Source: an uncultured Chloroflexia bacterium (GTDB taxonomy: Bacteria > Chloroflexota > Limnocylindria > Limnocylindrales > CSP1-4). Taken from it: a DNA stretch of 64,000 nucleotides. Shown one piece after another: positions 3,230 through 48,361 of this stretch (its first letter is position 1; every line of letters starts with the position of its first letter). The notes under the pieces are model-generated. The model made no database searches. It saw nothing but the letters and a program-made list of their open reading frames with translations, and was not told the origin of the DNA. A program made the translations under genes and the position numbers. The stretch is taken from contig CAVPHB010000002.1 in the NCBI GenBank assembly GCA_963704145.1, positions 67,878 to 131,877 of the forward strand, written 5' to 3'.

Positions 3230-6200
3230 TCAGACGGCGCGGTCGGATCCATAGCGGCTGGGGCAGATCTGGCGGTACTCGCAGCGGCCGCAGCGCCACT
3301 GGTCGGGCGCGGCGGCGAAATCGCCTGAGCGGATGCGACGCGCCTTCTGGAGCACCGACAGGCGAAACTCAGCGAGCTGTTCGGGGGTGCGCGTGGTGCT
3401 CAGGGCGAGGTCGTTCTCGGTGAAGTAGAGGGTCAGCTTCGACGCCGTGGGCAGGGGCTGCTTGGTGGCCGGGTCGATGACGGCGCCCAGCGCCGTGGCC
3501 AGGGCGTAGGCGGACAGTTGCTCGTCCGGTCGACGTCGGCCTGGTTCTTGGAGCGGCCGGTCTTGTAGTCGATGATCTCGATCGTGCCGTCGGCGTGGCG
3601 GTCGATGCGGTCGATGACGCCGTACAGCAGCACCGGCGTCTCGTCCGGCTCCCCGGGCAGCTGGAGCATGAAGCTCTGCTCGAAGGCGACCGACTGAGCC
3701 AGCGTGGCAAGCTCGCGGTCATAGAAGCGTCGCAGCGCCGGCTCGGCGCGTTTGGCGTAGTGCTCGGCCGCCTGAGCGTCGGCAAAGTGACGCGGCTGCC
3801 AGGCCGCGTCGAAGGCCTGCTTGAGCGCGTCGTAGCCGGGCAGCGGCAGCCCCGCGGCAGCGGCCGTCGCGCCGGGACCGGGCGTAGACCTCGAAGGCGC
3901 TGTGGATGACGTGACCGAACTCGAAGTAGCCCGGCGTCTCCGCTGTGGGGATGCGGTAGACCTTCTGAAACGCGTACTGGAGCGGGCACTCGTTGTACGT
4001 CCCCAGCTGCGAGTGCGAGAACGTCTGGGGCAGGCCCGTCATCTCGAGCAGCGTCCGGCCCGCCGGGGAGTGACGCGCCAGGACGTTGAGCGTCAGCGGA
4101 TCGAGACCGTTGCGACGCGCCTCCGCGGCCGTGCCCGCGACCGCCTCGGCTACTCCGACCAGCTCGGCCGTGAGCGCCGCCCGGCCGGCGTGATCATCGG
4201 CCGCCAGCCCCTCGAGCATGCCCATGATCTCGATCGCCCGGCGGCGCAGCGCGAAGCGCTGCTCGTGCGCCAGCGGCACGGGCATCAACTTGAGCAGCTG
4301 GACGGTCGTCTCGGGCGTGATCTGGGCCACCGACGGGGCGCCCACTTCGCCGTCCGCCTGCGGGGTCGCGGCACGCCGCTCGATGACGACGTCGGCCGGC
4401 ACGACGCGCACGTAGTCGTCCGACGAGACGCGGCGGACCGTCCTCGCTGCTGCGCTCGATCTCGGCCACGAACCGGCTGGGCTGGATCTTGGAGTCGGAC
4501 GGCTGCAGGCGCGCTCAGCAGCAGCCGGCTCCTGGCCCGGGTCATCGCCACGAACAGCAGGCGACGCTCCTCGTCGATGGCGAAGTCGTCCGGCGGGCGC
4601 TGCTTGAGCAGCTCGATCGGCAGCAGCTGCTGCTCGTCGCGTGTGTCGGGGAACTGGCCCTCGACGAGGCGCGGCACGACGACCGCCTCGTATTCGAGGC
4701 CCTTGGCCTGGTAGACGGTCATCAGCTGCACTCCCTCGACGTCGAGGCGGCCCGACTGATCCGTGTCAAGGTCACCGCCGACCTGCTGGTAGATGTCCAG
4801 ATAGGCCACGAACTGGGCCAGGCTGTCGCGCGGATGGGCCTGCTGCCAGTCGGCCACGAAACGCATGAAGCGGGCCAGAGCAAGCACGGTGCGCTGGGCG
4901 TCGGGCGTCTCGACCGCGATCAGGTCGTGCAGCAGGTTGGTGCGCACGAGGAAGTCCTCGAGCACCGCGAACGGCCCGTCGCGCTGCCCGCGCGGCACGA
5001 GCTCGTTGAGCAGGCCGAGCAGCCGCTCGAGCTTGACCCGCAGCCGCGCGTCGAGCTGCTCGCGCCGCCACTGCGACGCGCTGCTCGCGGCTGCGCCGCT
5101 GGCGAACGGTGTCGGGCTCACGCTCATCGAAGTCCGCGTCGTCCCACAGCGTCGGCGCGGGAACGGTCGCAGCGGCAGGACCGACGGTCAGCGTCGCTGG
5201 CAGTCGGCGGCTCGGACACGGTGATCTCGCCTTCGCGCAGGATGTCGCTCGCGGCCTGGTAGATGGGCCGGCCGTCCCACGCCGCGGCGTTGGTCACGCG
5301 CAGGATCTCGGCCGCATCGAGCCGCCACGGGCCAGCCGACAGCAGGCGCACGAAGGCGGCCGAGTCGTCCGGGTTGGCGGCCACGCGCAGGGCGGATTCG
5401 ACGTCGCGCACCTCGGGCACCGCAAACAGGCCCGTGCCACCAATGACGATGTAGGGCATGTCCTGCTTGCGCAGCCGGTCGACGATCAGGTCGCGGTGGC
5501 GGTGCTTGCGATAGAGCACCGCGATGTCGCTCCAGCAGCCGCGGGGCGGGGAGTGCCGCGAACGTCTCCTGGATCCAGGCGACGATCACGTCCGCCTCGT
5601 CCTGCTCGTCCGTGGCGTGGACGACGCGGACAGGCTCGCCAGCTGGTTTGATGGGCTGGAGCGGGCCGCTCTTGAGCCGCTTCTGGTTGCGCGCGATGAG
5701 CCGGCTGGCGGCCGACAGGATGTGGCCGGTCGAGCGGCGGTTCTCGAGCAAGGGCTGGCTGGCCACCGGCACTGCGGGCCGGTCGGCGGCCCACACCGGC
5801 GCCATCTCGAAGCGTTCGCGGAAGCGCTCAAAGGCGGCGTAGCTGGCGCCCCGGAAGCGGTAGATCGACTGGTCGTCGTCACCGACCACGACGACGTTGT
5901 CGGGCTTGTCCGGGCCGCGGCCGACCAGCTCGAGCAGCAGGATCTGGGCCATGTTGGCGTCCTGGAACTCGTCCACCAGCACGTGCCGGAACTGGGCCTG
6001 GTAGCGGCGCACGATGTTCGGACGCTCTGTCAGCAGCTGGATCGTCAAGCAGCTGCTGCTCGCCGAAATCGAGCAGCCCTCGCTCGCGCAGCGCGCGCTG
6101 GTAGATCTGCGTACGCCTCTGCCTCCTCGATCAGGCGCAGCACGTCGAACGCCTCTGCATCGCGCAGGTAGTCCGGCGTCAGGCCGCGCGCGCGGCGCGC

Positions 6201-42043: not shown

Positions 42044-42886
42044 GTGATCTGCCCTTACTGCGGGCGACGCAACCCAGCCGGCGCCACGTTCTGCAGCCGG
42101 TGCCGACAACGACTGCCCGTTGCCGGGCGCGTTCCCAGCAACAAGCGACTCATCTTTGCCGAGCCGGCGGGCGGTGGCGGGGTCGGCGCGCTGGCCATTG
42201 GCGCGGCGCTGCTGGCCGGCTTCGTGTTCATCGGCGGCGCGGCGGCGCTGTACCTGTCGTCCCCGCCCGGCAACCCCACGCTGCCGCCCAATTTCGGCGG
42301 CACGCAGACCCCCGGGCCGACGCTCGACATCTTTGTCCAGCCGACCCCGACGCCCAGCCCGTCGCCACAGCCCACGCCCAGCCCGACCTTCTTCCTGAAC
42401 TCCCCGACCCCGACGGCGTCGTTCGAGCCGTCGCCCTCGCCAACGCCGTTTGGTCCGACTCCGTCGCCCAAGCCCACCCGCACACCGCGACCGCCGTGTG
42501 ACGCGAACGGCCTGCCGCCGGGCTGCAAGCCGACCCCGCCACCGGCGACGCCGACGCCGGAGCCGACGCCCGCCGGCCCGGTCGCGAAGTTCTCGTGGGA
42601 TCAGGTGGGGACCAGCTTCACCGTCAGCTTCACCGATACCAGCACCGGCGGACCCACGTCGTGGGCGTGGGACTTCGCTGGCCTGGGCACCTCGGACCTC
42701 CAGACCCCCCCCAGCTTCGAGTTCCCGGCCTACGACCGTGACTACACCGTGACGCTAACGGTGACCAACGCCAACGGAACGAGCACCAAGCCGAAGACCG
42801 TCACCCTGCAGGCGCCGCTGTGCACTGGGACAGACGACCCGCCGGGGTGCATTCCGACCCCGCCGCCGCCGGCGCCGGCGCTCTGA
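42044..42886 (+). CDS. Zinc-ribbon / TM / Pro-Thr-Ser-rich / PKD-domain protein
   Basis: ICPYCGRRNPAGATFCSRCRQRL, a hydrophobic helix, a long P/T/S linker, then FSWDQVGTSFTVSFTDTSTGGPTSWAWDF...YTVTLTVTNANG (PKD-like). Confidence 0.7.
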   Translation: MICPYCGRRNPAGATFCSRCRQRLPVAGRVPSNKRLIFAEPAGGGGVGALAIGAALLAGFVFIGGAAALYLSSPPGNPTLPPNFGGTQTPGPTLDIFVQPTPTPSPSPQPTPSPTFFLNSPTPTASFEPSPSPTPFGPTPSPKPTRTPRPPCDANGLPPGCKPTPPPATPTPEPTPAGPVAKFSWDQVGTSFTVSFTDTSTGGPTSWAWDFAGLGTSDLQTPPSFEFPAYDRDYTVTLTVTNANGTSTKPKTVTLQAPLCTGTDDPPGCIPTPPPPAPAL

Positions 42887-42932
42887 GTCGCGGCACGCCG
42901 CTCGGATCCGAATTCATCGACCCCAGAACCAG

Positions 42933-42960
42933 GAGACCGCCGGTGGTGACCGGCGGTCTC
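42933..42960. terminator. Perfect 12-bp stem / 4-nt loop hairpin between convergent genes (candidate bidirectional intrinsic terminator; no clear U-tract)
   Basis: gagaccgccggt-ggtg-accggcggtctc read directly. Confidence 0.5.
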
Positions 42961-42994
42961 GTCATCTGGATCCAGCCTCGGAAATGAGGCCCGA

Positions 42995-43093
42995 TCAGTT
43001 CCAGCGGTGGCCAGACTCAGCGAGGGGGGCGGTGCCGGAACGCACCGGCGTCGGAAGCGCCAGGAACTCGTCGCCACGAAGCGAGCGCTTCAC
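42995..43093 (-). CDS. Small ORF 2, copy A (32 aa): VKRSLRGDEFLALPTPVRSGTAPLAESGHRWN
   Basis: GTG sits 3 nt after the sORF1-A stop. Copy B keeps frame and near-identical length, with several synonymous changes in the conserved C-terminal half. Confidence 0.35.
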   Translation of the reverse strand: MKRSLRGDEFLALPTPVRSGTAPLAESGHRWN

Positions 43094-43096
43094 GGC

Positions 43097-43237
43097 CTAG
43101 AGCTCCGCGGCGTACGGCGCGGGTGGGGGCGGCGCGTACGACGGAGCGAAGCCCCACCGCATCCCTGCGCCAAGGGTCAGGGCCATCGATGCAATCAGCA
43201 CGAGGGCCAGCGTGAAGCGCGCCAGGTTCGCCTTCAC
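43097..43237 (-). CDS. Small hydrophobic peptide, copy A (46 aa): (M)KANLARFTLALVLIASMALTLGAGMRWGFAPSYAPPPPAPYAAEL
   Basis: AAGGAG lies 5 nt before GTG 43237. Versus copy B there are 3 synonymous and 3 conservative changes in the shared 28 codons. The upstream part of the 151-aa track ORF is non-coding leader. Confidence 0.6.
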   Translation of the reverse strand: MKANLARFTLALVLIASMALTLGAGMRWGFAPSYAPPPPAPYAAEL

Positions 43238-43269
43238 TTCTACTCCTTTCGAGCAGTTGCGGAGCACCA

Positions 43270-43365
43270 GTTGGCCGGCGGCTGGGCGGTCTTCCAGTCC
43301 CATAGGTGGAAGGTCCCTGGCTTTGCGTCCCCGCCTCACGACGGGTTTGCCCTGGACGGTTGCCC
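43270..43365 (-). promoter_or_regulatory. c-di-GMP-I (GEMM-I) riboswitch-like aptamer, copy A
   Basis: Minus-strand RNA: CCAGGGCAAACCCGUC-GUGA-GGCGGGGACGCAAAGCCAGGGACCUUCCA...UGGAAGACCGCCC. From memory of V. cholerae Vc2: CACAGGGCAAACCAUUC-GAAA-GAGUGGGACGCAAAGCC. GNRA-capped P1 hairpin and P2 stem are present. Confidence 0.75.
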
Positions 43366-43395
43366 GGTGGAGGAATCTTGCGTTCCTCGGGTGGC

Positions 43396-43424
43396 ACGCT
43401 ACGGCGGCTGTCCTGCGCGGCCAA
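43396..43424 (-). promoter_or_regulatory. Candidate sigma70-type promoter of unit A (-35 TTGGCC, 17-nt spacer, -10 TAGCGT)
   Basis: The hexamers and spacing are conserved exactly in both tandem units, about 40 nt upstream of the aptamer. Confidence 0.35.
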
Positions 43425-43552
43425 TGGCCCATGTGTACTCGCGCCGTCGCTGACCAACGAGAGGTGTCCCCGCGCACCGGCTGCCGCGCCTCGTGCATGC
43501 CACCGCCGTGAGTCGCAGCACAGGGTCCGCGCGCCAGCCGCGGGAGAATCAC

Positions 43553-43580
43553 GAGACCGCCGGTGGGGACCGGCGGTCTC
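43553..43580. terminator. Perfect 12-bp stem / 4-nt loop hairpin ending unit B (same stem as 42933-42960, loop gggg)
   Basis: gagaccgccggt-gggg-accggcggtctc read directly. Confidence 0.5.
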
Positions 43581-43613
43581 GGTTCGAGATCGAGCCTCTT
43601 GATTGAGGCGAGA

Positions 43614-43709
43614 TCAAATCCAGCGGTGGCCGGCCTCCGGAAGGGGGGCCGTGCCGGAACGTACCGTCAGCGACAGTGCGAGCTCACAGCCGGTCAGCAA
43701 CTGCTTCAC
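43614..43709 (-). CDS. Small ORF 2, copy B (31 aa): VKQLLTGCELALSLTVRSGTAPLPEAGHRWI
   Basis: Same position and frame logic as copy A. Shared VRSGTAPLxExGHRW C-terminus. Confidence 0.35.
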   Translation of the reverse strand: MKQLLTGCELALSLTVRSGTAPLPEAGHRWI

Positions 43710-43711
43710 GG

Positions 43712-43801
43712 CTAGTACCACCGCATCCCTGCGCCGAGGGTCAGGGCCATCGATGCGATCAGCATGAGGGCCATTGTGAAGTGCGCCAGGTTCGCCTTCA
43801 C
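43712..43801 (-). CDS. Small hydrophobic peptide, copy B (29 aa): (M)KANLAHFTMALMLIASMALTLGAGMRWY
   Basis: Identical AAGGAG-N5-GTG context. Lacks the ~51-nt 3' extension of copy A. Confidence 0.6.
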   Translation of the reverse strand: MKANLAHFTMALMLIASMALTLGAGMRWY

Positions 43802-43834
43802 TTCTACTCCTTTCGAGCAGGTGAGCAGGCACCA

Positions 43835-43932
43835 GTTCGCCGGCGGCTGGGCGGTCTTCCGGTGACCCAGAGATGGAAGATCCCTAGCTTTGCGTCTCCG
43901 CCTCACGACGGGTTTGCCCTGGACGAGTTCAC
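43835..43932 (-). promoter_or_regulatory. c-di-GMP-I (GEMM-I) riboswitch-like aptamer, copy B
   Basis: CCAGGGCAAACCCGUC-GUGA-GGCGGAGACGCAAAGCUAGGGAUCUUCCA...CGGAAGACCGCCC. Same architecture as copy A. Confidence 0.75.
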
Positions 43933-44633
43933 CTGTGGAGGAGCTTCTGTTCCTCGGGTGGCACGCTACGACGGCTGTCCGGTTCGGCCAATGGCCCATG
44001 TGTACCCGGCGCCTGAACGACCAATGAGAGGTGCCTCGGTGCACCGGCCGCGTGGGTGCGCGCCCGGTCGCGGATCGACCGGGTCACCCCGGCCGCGGCA
44101 GGCACGCACCGGCTCCTGGTGCGCATGGCCGTCGCGATCGCCCACACCACGCCCACGGCGATCAGCACGTCGCCAATGCTGAACACGTTGGCAAGAGGCA
44201 GCCAGCGCGGCAGGGCGAAGATGTCGGTCAGCATCTCGAGCGCCGGATGGGCCATCATCGCGCTGTTCGAGTAGCCCTCCGGCACCCCTTTGCCGAGCGC
44301 GGCCATGGCAGCCGCCCCGGCCGGCATATAGCCACCGTTGGCGATGATCGCGGCCAGGTTGCCGACCGATCCCAGCGCCACGATCGGAAGGCCCGGGATG
44401 CGCGCGTTGCGGATGACGGCGGCCAACACGGCGGCCGTCGAGGCGACATAGAGCAGCGGCCCCAGGTCTCCGACCCGCTCCGAGACAACGGTCGAGAAGA
44501 GCACCACCTGGACGATGAGACCAGCGAAGACGACCGGCTTCCAGTGGAACCTGATGTGGGACAGACGCGTCGTGTCGCCGCCGAGCAGCACGCCCAGCGC
44601 GACGCCGATCAGAACGGCGTAGAGGATGAACAT
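43929..44633 (-). CDS. Small polytopic membrane protein (hypothetical); annotated 3' end probably too long
   Basis: MFILYAVLIGVALGVLLGG... has about 5 hydrophobic helices and starts 7 nt after the GGDEF-EAL stop. The last ~40 codons overlap the conserved unit-B promoter/leader, so the true stop may lie near 44050. Confidence 0.55.
   Translation of the reverse strand: MFILYAVLIGVALGVLLGGDTTRLSHIRFHWKPVVFAGLIVQVVLFSTVVSERVGDLGPLLYVASTAAVLAAVIRNARIPGLPIVALGSVGNLAAIIANGGYMPAGAAAMAALGKGVPEGYSNSAMMAHPALEMLTDIFALPRWLPLANVFSIGDVLIAVGVVWAIATAMRTRSRCVPAAAGVTRSIRDRARTHAAGAPRHLSLVVQAPGTHGPLAEPDSRRSVPPEEQKLLHR
43963..43991 (-). promoter_or_regulatory. Candidate sigma70-type promoter of unit B (-35 TTGGCC, 17 nt, -10 TAGCGT)
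   Basis: Same hexamers and spacing as unit A. Confidence 0.35.
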
Positions 44634-44640
44634 TGCCGCG

Positions 44641-47302
44641 TCAGGACGCCGGGTTCAGTCGCACGGCGGGCCGCCGACGGCCGGCTGGCAGCGCCGCCGG
44701 ACGGGCAGCCGCGGATGCGGGCCGGTCGAGCAGCAGGCGCCGGACGGCGGCAGCAGTGAGCGGGCGGGCGAACAGGTAGCCCTGCCCCAGCTCGCAACCC
44801 AGGTCGCGCAGGCGCTCGAGCTGGCCCCGCTGCTCGATTCCCTCGGCGATGATGCGCAGGTCCAGCGTCCGGCCAAGAGCCACGATGGCGTGGGCAAACG
44901 CCCACTCGTCGGGGCCGGCATCGGGGTGCGGAACGAAGTCCTTGGCGATCTTGAGGATGTCGACGTCGAACCGGCGCAGGTAGCCAAGCGATGAGTAGCC
45001 GGTCCCGAAGTCGTCGATCGCGATCTGAACCTTGAGTGTGCGCAGCGCCTCGAGCCGGGCGATGGTCATGTGCGTATCGCTGAACATCGCCGTCTCGGTC
45101 ATCTCGAGCACCAGCCGTTCGGCGGGGAACCCGGTCTCGTGCAGGATGCCCTCGAGATCGGCCGCAAAGTCGGGCTGCTTCAGCTGGTGCGCCGAGAGGT
45201 TCACCGTCAGCAACAGCCCGTTCGGTCGGCTGCCGAGGCGGTCGAAGACAGCCGCCTGGCGGCATGCTTCGACGAGCACCATCCGACCCAAGGGCAGGAT
45301 GGTGCCGCTCTCCTCGGCCAGCGGAATGAACTCGTCCGGCTCGACCAGGCCGCGCACCGGGTGGCGCCAGCGGACGAGCGCTTCGACGCCCACGATCGCC
45401 CTGCTGCGCAGGGCGACGATGGGCTGGTAGAGCACGCTCAGCTCGCCGCGGTCGATCGCCTTGCCCAGGTCGGAGGTCATCGAATGACGGGCGACGATGG
45501 CCGAGTGGACGGTCGGATCGAACACGGCGAACTTGCCGTTGGCCCTCCGCCTTGGCGGTGTACATCGCCACGTCCGCGTTGCGCAGCAGCTCCTCGGGCC
45601 GCCGTGTGTCAGGCGTCGCCGCCGCGATGCCGATGCTGCCCGAGATGCTGACATCCTGGCCTTCGACCGAGAATGGGACCTTCAGCGCGTCGAGCACACG
45701 ATGCGTGACCGCGATTGCGCGGGCCAGGTCCGGCCCGTCCTGCATCAGTACCGCGAACTCGTCGCCGCCCAGCCTGACCACCAGGTCGCTCTCGCGCATA
45801 CAGTCGCGCATCCGGGCGGCCACGGCCACGAGCAGCTGGTCGCCGGCGGCATGGCCGAGGCTGTCGTTGACGAACTTGAAGTCGTCCAGGTCGAGGAACA
45901 GCACGACCGTCAGCCGGCCCACCTCGTTGTCGGCGAGCATCTCTTCCACGCGCTCGGCCAAGAGACTGCGATTGGCCAACCCGGTAAGCGGGTCGTGATA
46001 GGCCTGGTAGCGCAGCTCCTCCTTGAGCCTGGACAGCTCGGCCAGCGACTGCTCGAGCTGGCCGTTCTCGAGCGCGACTGCCGCCTGGTTGGCCAGTGTC
46101 TCCAGCAATCGCAGATCCTCGGCCAAGAAGGACGTGCCTTCGGTTAGCCGGTTGGCAACCATGATCGAGCCGATCAGCCCCGATTCGCCGCGCAGCGGGG
46201 CGACCATCGCCTGGCGCACGCCGGATTGGTCTCGCTCCGCCGGGGTGGGGATGTGGAAGAAGGCGTGGTCCTCAACCGCGACGCGGGCGAAGATCGGATG
46301 GTCCTGCGCCACCCGCACGGGCGTCATGACCTTCGACACGTCGCCGTTGGCGACGCTCGTCAGCAAACCCTCGGTCTGATCCTCGCGCGGATAGAGGAGC
46401 AGCTCCGCGCGCTCCGCGCGGAACATGTCGCGCGCGTGATCGAGCAGCGCGACCACGGCCAGGTCAAGCTCGCGCGAGTCCTGCAGGATGCGGCTGGACT
46501 GATAGAGCAGCTCGAGCCGCTCGTGCTTCTCGCGCTCGGAGAGGTAGGCCCGATAGGCCAGGAAGACGGTCGCCAGCGGGACGATCAGCAGCGTCATCAG
46601 CCACGCGTCGCTCTGGATGACCGTTACCGCGAGCAGTGCCAGGCTGGTGTTGGCGACGGCCACCAGCCCCCCGAACTGGACCATCTCGGGCAGCTTTTCG
46701 TACTGCGGCGCGCCGCCCGAGAGTGAGATCGCCGTGGCGATGGTGAAGGAGCTCAGCACCGCCGCGGCAAATGTCGCGGCGAAGGCCGTCATCCACATCT
46801 CGGGCCGGCCGCCTTGGGCGAGGTCCAGGCCAATGTGGAAGATGGCCAGCGTCAGTGTGCCCGCCGCCGCGAAGTTGACCAGGTTGAACGCGAGCTTGAG
46901 CGGCGACTGGCGTGACAGCACGAGCGCGATCGCGGTGCCGCTCATCAGGGCCAGCAGATAGCTGCCCGGCTCGAGCGTAAACAGGCCGATGACGGCCGGG
47001 AACTCGCTGAGCGAGAAGGAGTGCTTCTCACGCTTGAAGTGGACGTCGACGACCTTCAGCTCGGCGGCCAGGAAGCCGGCCGCCAGCAGCGGCCATGGGA
47101 GGCGCACCCCGTCCGGCAGCGCGAAGGACCGGCCGCTGAGAACGAACGCGTAGACAACACCGGTGATGAGGGCGAGCAGCAGCGTGAAGAGCGCCACGCG
47201 CAGCGCCGGTCGCTCCGCGAACGCAGCAGCGATCGATCGGACTAACGGCGTCATTTCGTCGCGAATGTTGATCCCGGGGCCTGGCCGCTCGGAATTCGGC
47301 AT
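44641..47302 (-). CDS. Membrane sensor / GAF-like / GGDEF / EAL c-di-GMP turnover protein (one frame break near 45560)
   Basis: About 8 TM helices. YHDPLTGLANR...RLGGDEFAVL (GGDEF). Then in a second frame (track ORF 44641-45654): YQPIV, EALVRW, LEMTE, IAIDDFGTGYSSL, AEGIE, QGYLFARP (EAL). Confidence 0.85.
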
Positions 47303-47536
47303 GCCTCGACCATCGGCCACGCTGATAATGCCCTCGGTAGCGGTTGCATAACCCTTTCTACTCGGCTCGCAGGGCAATGGCGGTAACTCGAAGGTACTGC
47401 GCCGAACACCTGACCCGTCCAGATGGGTGCTGTAGGGCCATCCAGGCCCCTCGTGTGGCGTGTCGGTCGCCTGTACTATTCGGTTCGGTGGTGAGCGAGG
47501 CGATCGGACGCCGTTCCGGGCTGTGAGGACGACGAA

Positions 47537-48361
47537 TTGAACTGCCCGAGTTGCGATCGTCTCAACCCACCCGACGCTCTCTTCTGCAACCGCTGCGGTG
47601 CGCGATTGCGAAAGGGCGGCGTCACCTACCGCAACAGGCAGCAGACCCAGCCGTGGCGCGTGGGACAGGCTGTGCTGGCTTTCAGCCTCCTCCTGTTGGC
47701 CGGTGCCGTCGTGGTCGTTGGCGCGATGGTGCTGGTCAAGTCTGGGCAGCCGGGGGCGACGCCCACGTCAGCCGCGGCCGCTTCATCGTCGCCCAGCCTG
47801 CCGCCCTTCGTGCAGCCAACGCCCACGGTCTTGCCAAGCCCGTCACCGCCGCCCAGCCCGACGCCGCCGTTCGTCTTGCCTACCCCGTCCGTGTCACCGT
47901 CGCTGCCGATCGAGTCGCCCAGCCCGAGCGCCGGTCCAACGCCAACCCCGACGGCGGCTCCCACACCCACACCCGAGGCAACGCCGGTCGACTGCGCCGT
48001 CCAGCCCGGCACCAACATCAAGACGATCTTCCTGGGCATCGGCAATCCGGAGTCACGCGGGCCGCTGCCCAAGACGTGGTGCGTCCGCAGCGTGACCATC
48101 CGGCACGTTTCCGGCTTCGGCACGGCGCGGCTGCTGCGCGACGGACGGCTGCTCTTCGAGGCTTCCTGCGCGGCTCCCGGAGCGTGCCCTGACTCGGTCA
48201 ACGAGTTCTCGCCACCCCGTCGCGTCCGGCTGGGTTCGACCCTGATCTACGGGTTCGTGTGCGCCGACGACCCGGCCACGATCGAGGTCGACGAGTGCAC
48301 CGATGCCACGCCGGACGGTGCGACCATCCAGATCGACTACGAGCCGATCGCCGGACCCTGA
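47537..48361 (+). CDS. Zinc-ribbon / TM / Pro-Ser-Thr-rich protein with Cys-containing C-terminal domain
   Basis: NCPSCDRLNPPDALFCNRCGARL, a TM helix, a P/S/T linker and a ~120-aa C-terminal domain with 5 Cys. Apparent TTG start with GAGGA upstream. Same layout as 42044-42886. Confidence 0.6.
   Translation: MNCPSCDRLNPPDALFCNRCGARLRKGGVTYRNRQQTQPWRVGQAVLAFSLLLLAGAVVVVGAMVLVKSGQPGATPTSAAAASSSPSLPPFVQPTPTVLPSPSPPPSPTPPFVLPTPSVSPSLPIESPSPSAGPTPTPTAAPTPTPEATPVDCAVQPGTNIKTIFLGIGNPESRGPLPKTWCVRSVTIRHVSGFGTARLLRDGRLLFEASCAAPGACPDSVNEFSPPRRVRLGSTLIYGFVCADDPATIEVDECTDATPDGATIQIDYEPIAGP

Follow-up and report, generated by a model that had tools for sequence, protein, structure and literature searches.

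We analyzed a locus on the minus strand of a 64,000-nucleotide (nt) stretch, here called the window, of contig CAVPHB010000002.1 from an uncultured Chloroflexia bacterium, in which an original prediction, made from sequence alone, had placed two class-I cyclic di-GMP (c-di-GMP-I) riboswitch-like aptamers in tandem cassettes at 43270-43932. The locus is a tandem duplication of about 567-620 nt per unit, 84% identical overall, with the aptamers 567 nt apart. Read 5' to 3' on the minus strand, each unit comprises TTGGCC-N17-TAGCGT, a hairpin designated P0, the aptamer, a linker carrying the Shine-Dalgarno (SD) sequence, a hairpin holding the GUG start codon, two miniature open reading frames (mini-ORF1 and mini-ORF2) and a GC-rich hairpin. 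Upstream on the same strand lie a gene for a membrane GAF-GGDEF-EAL enzyme and then a DUF5317 gene, in an order that is the same in relatives. The predicted range takes in both aptamers and the linker, mini-ORFs and terminator hairpin of cassette 1, but the whole duplicated unit covers about 42925-43991: at the cassette 1 end the prediction leaves out P0 and the promoter-like boxes, and at the cassette 2 end it stops short of the coding part and the terminator. Tandem, too, proved right in one sense only: whole riboswitch-plus-gene cassettes are duplicated, rather than two aptamers gating one gene. In addition, each cassette has a second, putatively coupled mini-ORF that the prediction did not include.

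The two aptamers and their relatives

We scanned the whole window, on both strands, against the 4227 families of Rfam 15 with cmscan at the gathering threshold. This gave two matches in total, both to the c-di-GMP-I family RF01051, whose gathering score is 35: aptamer 1 (43928-43839) scored 49.6 bits (E 1.1e-6) and aptamer 2 (43361-43274) 47.8 bits (E 3e-6), each over model positions 1-87 of 87. The covariance-model check proposed with the original prediction was therefore positive for both copies. On the minus strand each copy reads AGGGCAAACCCGUCGUGAGGCGG(A/G)GACGCAAAGC(U/C)AGGGA(U/C)CUUCCA...(C/U)GGAAG and then ACCGCCCAGCCGCCGGC, the whole 3' part being GGAAGACCGCCCAGCCGCCGGC; the strings quoted earlier are indeed found on that strand within 43270-43932, as is the GNRA-capped P2, whose loop reads GUGA. 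AAGGAG-N5-GUG lies 36-37 nt beyond the conserved aptamer block in both copies, and the same distance separates the aptamer end from the GUG of mini-ORF1, on the same strand. The argument that the block falls in different reading frames also holds, because the linkers differ by a 1-nt indel (block to GUG, 37 nt in one copy and 36 nt in the other), which shifts the block into another frame relative to the downstream ORF.

DUF5317 relatives, taken from one-genome-per-species contigs, come from Chloroflexota metagenome-assembled genomes (MAGs; 'Candidatus Limnocylindrales', 'uncultured Chloroflexia') and are 50-74% identical. In 13 of these loci an aptamer of the c-di-GMP-I clan follows DUF5317 by about 130 nt and, wherever the contig continues, it is followed by an SD sequence and an ORF starting (M/V)KANLARF.... 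When metagenomes were scanned with the first 24 nt of mini-ORF1, which are invariant, the unit was found in at least 120 stretches; for most of them, our own reading of the Joint Genome Institute (JGI) scaffold names gives soil and sediment as the habitat. Linkage was counted over 85 mini-ORF1 copies in 80 metagenome loci. The aptamer lies 28-41 nt (median 35) upstream in 80 of the 85 copies. Of the remaining five, one is truncated where the contig ends and four lack an aptamer. In these four (L057, L059, L070 and L077) the invariant start is present with no c-di-GMP-I clan aptamer detectable upstream, and two of them are near a tRNA gene. Five contigs carry two mini-ORF copies, and tandem cassettes also occur in L044 and L045-L047.

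The P1/P2/P3 fold is supported by covariation in these relatives. In an alignment of 18 copies, made with MAFFT rather than fitted to a model and with the canonical architecture entered by hand, 90.8% of cells pair, compared with at most 47% when the partners are slid, and 10 pairs are compensatory. A clade model (R1) built from the 18 copies found 101 aptamers. For 95 distinct aptamers, 93.1% of cells pair against at most 47% when slid, 16 of 26 pairs are compensatory, and none of 500 shuffles reaches the observed value; this second alignment is model-fitted, so biased to the model, and the independent 18-copy alignment agrees with it. The window copies themselves differ at one pair, with U-A in copy 1 and a C.A mismatch in copy 2.

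We next turn to the ligand pocket. At the positions that we take, following the crystal-structure literature, to be equivalent to G20, A47 and C92 of the Vibrio cholerae Vc2 aptamer (columns 14/41/93 of our alignment A3, 15/43/138 of alignment A6), both window copies have G, A and C. Among relatives, the first is G in 100 of 101 aptamers, the second A in all 101 and the third C in 98 of 100. Rare variants of the pocket also lie upstream of mini-ORF1. One of them, L085:2375-2457, has A at the G20 equivalent, the change known from GEMM-Ib riboswitches, which sense cyclic GMP-AMP (cGAMP). U at the C92 equivalent is seen in L051:3561-3658 and L040:2875-2970 (also L041-L043), and the L040 aptamer additionally reads ACGCAGAACC. 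Overall, the full-length RF01051 matches, the covariation and the contact bases uphold the assignment of both elements as c-di-GMP-I aptamers; they point to canonical-pocket class-I riboswitch aptamers, for which the ligand would be c-di-GMP.

With RF01051 and Vc2 the window RNAs share the P1/P2/P3 junction, the GUGA (GNRA) loop of P2, the GGCAAAC and ACGCAAAGC boxes, the G/A/C contacts, the position in a 5' leader and a genome encoding GGDEF/EAL enzymes. They differ in the deletion of the receptor segment and in the addition of P0, an outer extension of P1 and a start-codon hairpin inside the ORF. Moreover, the host is an uncultured member of the Chloroflexota, and in place of a conventional protein the target is two unannotated mini-ORFs.

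Overall, the sequence is also very similar to the variant family c-di-GMP-I-GGC (RF03167; clan CL00126), which has a gathering score of 59. Five syntenic relatives pass that score (L019:4755-4833, L017:4570-4653, L007:4648-4727, L006:3565-3642 and L012:5612-5699) and three more come close; relatives reach 61-66.6 bits, and several score higher on RF03167 than on RF01051. For the window copies the best clan match is RF01051, their RF03167 scores being masked by clan competition. Membership in RF03167 was rejected: the variant consensus reads ACGCGAA, with G at the A47 equivalent, whereas the window copies and all 101 aptamers read ACGCAAA. Because the defining base of the variant is absent, we regard the clade as one of canonical-pocket aptamers. 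Here 'GGC' is presumed to stand for G20/G47/C92, in keeping with the RF03167 consensus and the naming scheme. The RF03167 model thus appears to collect canonical-pocket RNAs of this clade through general similarity.

The mini-ORFs and their gene neighborhood

The small ORF that had been noticed after AAGGAG-N5-GTG is real and conserved. It has 24 clustered homologues of 29-76 amino acids (aa), none with a Pfam domain or an informative name (P0001 is the cassette 2 mini-ORF1 called from an upstream start), and its variability by codon position, 14.2/7.2/24.4 bits of entropy, is a coding signature. From codon 9 on, the peptide ASMALTLGAGIRW is preserved despite synonymous changes at almost every codon, and LGAGIRW persists through wobble changes. 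GUG is the start codon in 82 of the 85 metagenome copies, whose most common length is 29 aa and whose stops cluster at 28-31 codons; a conserved SD sequence lies 5-9 nt ahead of the GUG or AUG. In the window, downstream of DUF5317, the two copies end LGAGMRWY and LGAGMRWG..., the second being longer (46 versus 29 aa) because of a 52-nt insertion ahead of the stop. Mini-ORF1 is predicted to encode a single-helix peptide of about 29 aa with the end GAG(I/M)RWx.

Mini-ORF2 starts 2-3 nt past the mini-ORF1 stop in the window, and both copies end ...GHRW-x. A similar frame, ending G[HKRQ]RWx before its stop, follows mini-ORF1 in 61 of 77 metagenome copies (it was seen in L001, L004, L011, L045 and many of L048-L167). 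It represents a second family, with 97 distinct peptides of typically about 33 aa and the form MKxxFKAQAFRxxLALxxLASSALVxEAG(Q/H)RWx. This typical form is hydrophobic; the window and a minority of relatives carry polar sequence there and retain ...AGHRWx. The C-terminal GHRW keeps its DNA block GGNCACCGCTGG even where the hydrophobic part is replaced. The junction between the two ORFs is a 2-nt gap in 52 cases and a 4-nt overlap in 30, an arrangement of the coupling type, and mini-ORF2 is predicted to be translationally coupled to mini-ORF1. Neither peptide has a family match in Pfam or NCBIfam. The cassettes hold an operon for two peptides, one of about 29 aa and one of about 32 aa, that is very strongly conserved, widespread, essentially unannotated and newly recognized as a riboswitch target. 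All features are listed in Table 1.

Table 1. Features of the duplicated cassettes and the adjoining genes (window positions; MFE, minimum free energy; CM, covariance model)
Feature	Position	Strand	Remarks
Cassette 1 -35-like box, TTGGCC	43986..43991	-	17 nt upstream of the -10-like box; GGnCCATGG-type element at this spacing in relatives; promoter role inferred
Cassette 1 -10-like box, TAGCGT (TANNNT)	43963..43968	-	Box position fixed in 67/90 distinct upstream regions
Cassette 1 P0 hairpin, GAGGA...UCCUC	43938..43955	-	Weak taken alone, z -0.8
Cassette 1 aptamer	43839..43928 (clade model 43837-43931)	-	RF01051 49.6 bits; clade CM R1 88 bits
Cassette 1 SD hairpin, CUGCUC-GAAAG-GAGUAG	43804..43820	-	SD AAGGAG 43812-43807; in every predicted fold
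Cassette 1 start-codon hairpin, GUGAAGGCG-AACCUGG-CGCACUUCAC	43776..43801	-	GUG 43801-43799; about -12 kcal/mol
Cassette 1 mini-ORF1, 29 aa, (M)KANLAHFTMALMLIASMALTLGAGMRWY and stop	43712..43801	-	Homologues, codon-position entropy
Cassette 1 mini-ORF2, 31 aa, ...VRSGTAPLPEAGHRWI and stop	43614..43709	-	Begins 2 nt past the mini-ORF1 stop
Cassette 1 terminator-like hairpin, GAGACCGCCGG-UCCCCA-CCGGCGGUCUC	43545..43581	-	Repeat family D7; MFE -33.2 kcal/mol, z -3.1
Cassette 2 -35-like box, TTGGCC	43419..43424	-	Sequence and arrangement as in cassette 1
Cassette 2 -10-like box, TAGCGT	43396..43401	-	As in cassette 1
Cassette 2 P0 hairpin, GAGGAA...UUCCUC	43370..43388	-	MFE -7.3 kcal/mol, z -3.2; one pair more than copy 1
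Cassette 2 aptamer	43274..43361 (clade model 43272-43364)	-	RF01051 47.8 bits; R1 89 bits
Cassette 2 outer P1 extension	CACCGG 43369-43364 : CUGGUG 43270-43265	-	Class-level support from cognate versus swapped energies
Cassette 2 SD hairpin	43240..43256	-	SD AAGGAG 43248-43243
Cassette 2 start-codon hairpin	43212..43237	-	GUG 43237-43235; 93% of local ensemble, z -2.6
Cassette 2 mini-ORF1, 46 aa, (M)KANLARFTLALVLIASMALTLGAGMRWGFAPSYAPPPPAPYAAEL and stop	43097..43237	-	17-aa C-terminal extension versus the 29-aa norm
Cassette 2 mini-ORF2, 32 aa, MKRSLRGDEFLALPTPVRSGTAPLAESGHRWN and stop	42995..43093	-	In-frame 3-nt indel versus copy 1
Cassette 2 terminator-like GC-rich hairpin	42925..42961	-	Repeat family D7; MFE -37.5 kcal/mol, z -3.6
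DUF5317 membrane protein gene	43929..44633	-	PF17248, E 7.9e-27; domain is residues 27-166
Membrane GAF-GGDEF-EAL gene, frameshift-split	44609..47377	-	Pfam domains; tblastn with intact relative

The contigs of mini-ORF homologues carry, in order, an intact GAF-GGDEF-EAL gene (859-914 aa), DUF5317 and the mini-ORF; one contig lacks DUF5317 and has the mini-ORF and the enzyme gene in convergent orientation. Pfam places the GAF and GGDEF domains of the window enzyme in the same frame and its EAL domain in a different one. The frameshift lies between GGDEF and EAL (...GCGGAGGGCCAACGGCAAGTTC...; ORFs 47377-44609 and 45654-44641), at a place with no long homopolymer, and could reflect either a true pseudogene or split gene or an assembly error. 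A MASE9 domain was considered for the membrane region of this enzyme and rejected, with no Pfam match and a weak pairwise alignment (23% over 139 aa, E 3e-4) to the MASE9 region of the Bacillota proteins described below.

DUF5317 has 3743 homologues. An AlphaFold (AF2) model of the protein reached a predicted local distance difference test (pLDDT) of 85 and a predicted template modeling (pTM) score of 0.81, and a comparison with the PDB gave no structural relative (best E 8.9). No mention of DUF5317 was found in the literature consulted, and a preprint on MASE9 (bioRxiv 10.1101/2021.11.05.467447) is silent about it too. The tail of the window ORF (43929-44120, minus strand) continues about 60 codons past the domain end and crosses the promoter-like boxes and P0 of cassette 1, and its stop at 43929-43931 overlaps the first bases of the extended aptamer model. 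Because relatives are mostly 180-200 aa long, this C-terminal tail is probably not functional protein. Two plus-strand genes, at 42044-42886 and 47537-48361, flank the locus and are built alike, with a zinc ribbon at the N-terminus, a single hydrophobic segment and a long region rich in Pro, Thr and Ser; the first has a PKD domain in addition.

Small ORFs beside DUF5317 also occur in other phyla. In all six Bacillota loci (mostly Peptococcaceae) a 28- to 36-aa ORF, M-x-RW-x-T-x-x-PYSLLV...LAGGAGxKWG, directly follows DUF5317, about 30-60 nt after it, and is probably cotranscribed with it; the peptides end ...LAGGAG(R/N/G)KWG or, in variants, ...GGASGKWG or ...SGASRRWG. A MASE9-HD_5 (HD-GYP type) gene precedes DUF5317 in all six (L023, L026, L028, L030, L036 and L038, at about 4490-4660), and L023 has two tandem mini-ORF copies. 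A Thermotogae MAG (L024, 62-237) has ...LLLGAGAKWHG ORFs near DUF5317. No riboswitch was found in the Bacillota DUF5317 loci. A fluoride riboswitch (RF01734) on the strand of DUF5317 begins within about 20-35 nt of where the DUF5317 match ends in three MAGs of unclassified bacteria (L029:4565-4626, L031:4573-4634 and L032:3192-3253).

We propose to group these products as DUF5317-associated GAGx[KR]W mini-peptides, about 28-36 aa long, with one hydrophobic helix and a G-(A/G)-G-x-[KR]-W-(x) end, whose genes lie beside DUF5317 and a c-di-GMP enzyme gene; the window mini-ORF1 fits this description. The Chloroflexota and Bacillota peptides may be homologous, to judge from shared motif and context rather than alignment statistics. 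The window locus resembles the pairs of DUF5317 and MASE9-HD-GYP in having a membrane c-di-GMP enzyme, DUF5317 and then a mini-ORF (GAGxKW in Peptococcaceae), and differs in its riboswitch and in its GAF-GGDEF-EAL enzyme, whose membrane region is only weakly MASE9-like. No description of a mini-ORF beside DUF5317 was found in the literature consulted. What is conserved, then, is a trio of membrane c-di-GMP enzyme, DUF5317 and G-x-[KR]-W mini-peptide; in the Chloroflexota lineage the peptide genes probably gained a promoter-like region of their own and a c-di-GMP riboswitch and underwent duplication. Intramembrane ligand binding has been proposed for MASE9 (bioRxiv 10.1101/2021.11.05.467447). 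Speculatively, the most likely site of action of the mini-peptides is the membrane, with DUF5317, the c-di-GMP enzyme or both as partners. That they are dedicated membrane partners of DUF5317 and of the intramembrane, MASE9-like sensor domain of the neighboring c-di-GMP enzyme, or else processing or export substrates like SHP/ComS-type pheromone precursors, is an idea that we put forward with considerable reserve.

RNA elements around the start codon and models of control

Several RNA elements beyond the aptamer itself are conserved in the leaders. P0 is present in 18 of 18, with varied arm sequences (GAGACGA/UCGUCUC, GGACG/CGUCC, GGAGG/CCUCC, GUGGG/CCUAC, GAGGAA/UUCCUC) and a mean segment energy of -9.9 kcal/mol, compared with -5.8 for shuffles. 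Between P0 and P1 lies a segment that pairs with the linker right after P1 (CAUCGGU:ACCGAUG, CCACCG:CGGUGG; CACCGG:CUGGUG in copy 2). The mean energy of this duplex is -9.5 kcal/mol for cognate partners against -7.5 for shuffled and -7.6 for swapped ones (best swap -8.2), suggesting a covarying outer extension of P1.

Downstream of the aptamer, the SD hairpin is identical in both window copies. The GUG forms the first base pair of a 26-nt hairpin, GUGAAGGCG-AACCUGG-CGC(A/G)CUUCAC, made with codons 7-9 and having an energy of -11 to -12 kcal/mol in nearly all copies. Together, the SD and start-codon hairpins occupy 95% (copy 1, z -2.9) and 93% (copy 2, z -2.6) of the local ensemble. The first 26 nt of mini-ORF1 are near-invariant in relatives, synonymous sites included; L001 and L006, which start with AUG, have the matching U at position 26. 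In codons 1-9 (GUGAAGGCGAACCUGGCGCGCUUCAC; 43801-43776 and 43237-43212), synonymous changes are nearly absent. CCUGG(C) in the hairpin loop is complementary to GUCCAGGGC in J1/2 and to AGCCAGGGA in the 5' strand of P3, both of them invariant segments of the aptamer.

Of 90 distinct regions upstream of the aptamer, 67 have a TANNNT box at a constant distance from it, compared with a mean of 8.8 and a maximum of 18 for shuffled controls; a GGnCCATGG-type element is conserved 17-18 nt ahead of the box. These boxes would fit one promoter per cassette, with a transcript that runs from P0.

We consider it likely that each cassette stands on its own, with a bicistronic mini-operon under the control of a canonical class-I c-di-GMP riboswitch. 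The membrane GAF-GGDEF-EAL enzyme encoded next to the cassettes would be one of the factors that determine the level of c-di-GMP; binding of c-di-GMP to the aptamer would alter the accessibility of the SD sequence and start codon, and the amount of both mini-peptides would follow c-di-GMP. An intrinsic terminator between aptamer and ORF was looked for and not found; for this reason, and because the linker is short (28-41 nt), control of translation initiation is most likely. Folding models of 92 leaders bear on the direction of the switch. When the aptamer was enforced, start-codon accessibility dropped from 0.22 to 0.11 (down in 40 leaders, up in 8, unchanged in 44), and the start-codon hairpin was present in the MFE fold of 65 leaders, compared with 29 when folding was free. 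The main competitor of this hairpin in the free ensemble is pairing between GCCAGG of aptamer P3 and CCUGGC of the ORF loop and stem, with a probability of about 0.26. On the strength of these models we lean, by a modest margin, toward c-di-GMP as an OFF switch that favors the start-codon hairpin: the ligand would lock GCCAGG into P3, the hairpin would close and translation would fall.

A number of observations weigh against this picture. The tetraloop-receptor segment of the Rfam model (CUAA, four positions) is deleted in both copies, although the P2 loop is still GNRA and might dock into a plain helix, and P1 proper has only about 3 base pairs (bp) in the window copies. The start-codon effect may be generic, reflecting the removal of competing partners in a GC-rich RNA. 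GCCAGG and CCUGGC are beyond covariation testing because both are invariant, and the lone ORF variant (L006) has no compensating change. SD accessibility showed no consistent shift between aptamer-enforced and free folds. P0, with its C-rich 3' arm or flank, was considered as the site of a specific anti-SD and rejected, its SD duplex energies being no better than those of partner-swapped controls, and no conserved anti-SD or anti-sequestor was identified in the leaders. A scan for consensus sigma-70 promoters found no site. The GC-rich 3' hairpins, of 12-13 bp, are both without a U-tract, so that their function as terminators is a presumption. Finally, the neighboring enzyme gene is broken in the assembly, with the frameshift placed at 45530/45534 by tblastn with an intact 914-aa relative.

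Other explanations of the locus have to be set against these data. The cassettes might be promoterless, with read-through from the GGDEF-EAL/DUF5317 operon and riboswitches that gate only the distal mini-ORFs of a long mRNA: all the genes share one strand, the DUF5317 ORF reaches 43929, the search for a terminator separating DUF5317 from aptamer 1 was negative, and both the negative sigma-70 scan and the probable cotranscription of the Bacillota mini-ORF are in keeping with this. It nevertheless seems unlikely to us, since cassette 2 repeats the same upstream block of about 120 nt after a strong terminator-like hairpin. Moreover, the TANNNT box and its -35-like element 17-18 nt upstream are positionally conserved in those 67 of 90 relatives, the conserved T1/A2/T6 is exactly what a -10 box, as opposed to an RNA helix, would be expected to show, and the units of L040 and L041 have no DUF5317 upstream. 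Own promoters and read-through are not mutually exclusive. We are similarly doubtful that control is exerted through transcription or RNA stability (Rho-dependent termination, RNase access) instead of occlusion of the SD sequence or start. The constant SD accessibility in silico and the failure to identify an anti-SD or anti-sequestor would suit such control, and premature termination operates in the best-studied precedent, that of C. difficile described below; on the other side stand the lack of an intrinsic terminator within a linker of only 28-41 nt, the conserved hairpins that contain SD and start codon, the RNA-level constraint on the ORF start and the modeled response of start-codon accessibility to aptamer folding.

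Two further alternatives appear much more remote. The ligand could be 3'3'-cGAMP, as for GEMM-Ib, or that of the orphan c-di-GMP-I-GGC variant, given the higher RF03167 than RF01051 scores of close relatives and the rare pocket changes of L085 (A at the G20 equivalent) and L051/L040 (U at the C92 equivalent). But G/A/C is found in both window copies and about 97% of relatives, the motif is ACGCAAA and not the RF03167 consensus ACGCGAA, and the genomic partner is always a c-di-GMP enzyme (GGDEF-EAL or HD-GYP), which makes another ligand highly improbable. We give slightly less credit still to the notion that the mini-ORFs are untranslated, and that the switch controls a noncoding RNA or has an extended expression platform. 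It draws on the invariance of the first 26 nt of mini-ORF1 at synonymous sites and their stable hairpin, on the loss of the hydrophobic segment of mini-ORF2 in the window and many relatives with the GGNCACCGCTGG block kept, and on the missing Pfam and NCBIfam matches. Against it, variation from codon 9 on is concentrated at third positions while ASMALTLGAGIRW is kept, the SD sequence is conserved 5-9 nt before GUG/AUG and the stops cluster at 28-31 codons, the window copies of mini-ORF2 differ by an in-frame indel and the junctions are of the coupling type, and divergent peptides with the same C-terminal motif occur next to DUF5317 in another phylum.

Relation to known systems and significance

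The riboswitch-controlled two-peptide cassette, our preferred reading, has its closest functional precedent in Clostridioides difficile. There, the class-I riboswitches Cdi1_6 and Cdi1_8-11 control the CD1980.2 family of 58-aa membrane-associated proteins; the switches are OFF switches that act by premature termination, and the family is multicopy, needed for sporulation, and without reported homologues outside C. difficile (bioRxiv 10.64898/2026.06.10.731418). Common to both systems are the riboswitch class, its position upstream of small hydrophobic proteins that were previously unannotated or hypothetical, multicopy units, and c-di-GMP signaling that has small membrane proteins, putative ones here, as its output. 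The window belongs to another phylum, and by description its peptides are about half the size (about 29 and about 32 aa; 29-46 versus 58), form a coupled pair and have a G-x-R-W end; there is no terminator, control by translation is probable, and the copies are adjacent, in tandem, next to DUF5317 and a c-di-GMP enzyme.

Tandem architectures with two or three c-di-GMP-I aptamers per leader are known, for example before yebA-type genes in Bacillota (PMC12452182, PMC9481103). The window is similar in having two such aptamers near each other on one strand, but here each aptamer has its own promoter-like boxes, SD sequence, two ORFs and terminator hairpin. A multi-aptamer riboswitch was accordingly rejected for this locus: with 567 nt, two ORFs, a strong hairpin and a second promoter-like region between the aptamers, these are duplicated genes and not a cooperative or logic-gate device.

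The riboswitch call is by itself ordinary, belonging to a textbook class; the novelty lies in the mini-protein target. For users of RF03167 who define the gene associations of the variant, it matters that the model gathers canonical-pocket aptamers of this clade. After C. difficile, this would be a second independent case of class-I c-di-GMP riboswitches driving multicopy small membrane proteins, and the tie of the operon to DUF5317 and membrane c-di-GMP enzymes, in at least two phyla, offers a functional lead for DUF5317 and MASE9-type sensors. The two-peptide operon appears to be the main local c-di-GMP output in an abundant uncultured lineage of soil and sediment Chloroflexota. If the peptides do act as membrane partners, c-di-GMP would determine the amount of a peptide that in turn acts on c-di-GMP synthesis or degradation. 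The result would be a feedback module closed by a riboswitch, old enough for Bacillota and Thermotogota to share it without the riboswitch, and amplified in tandem in soil Chloroflexota.

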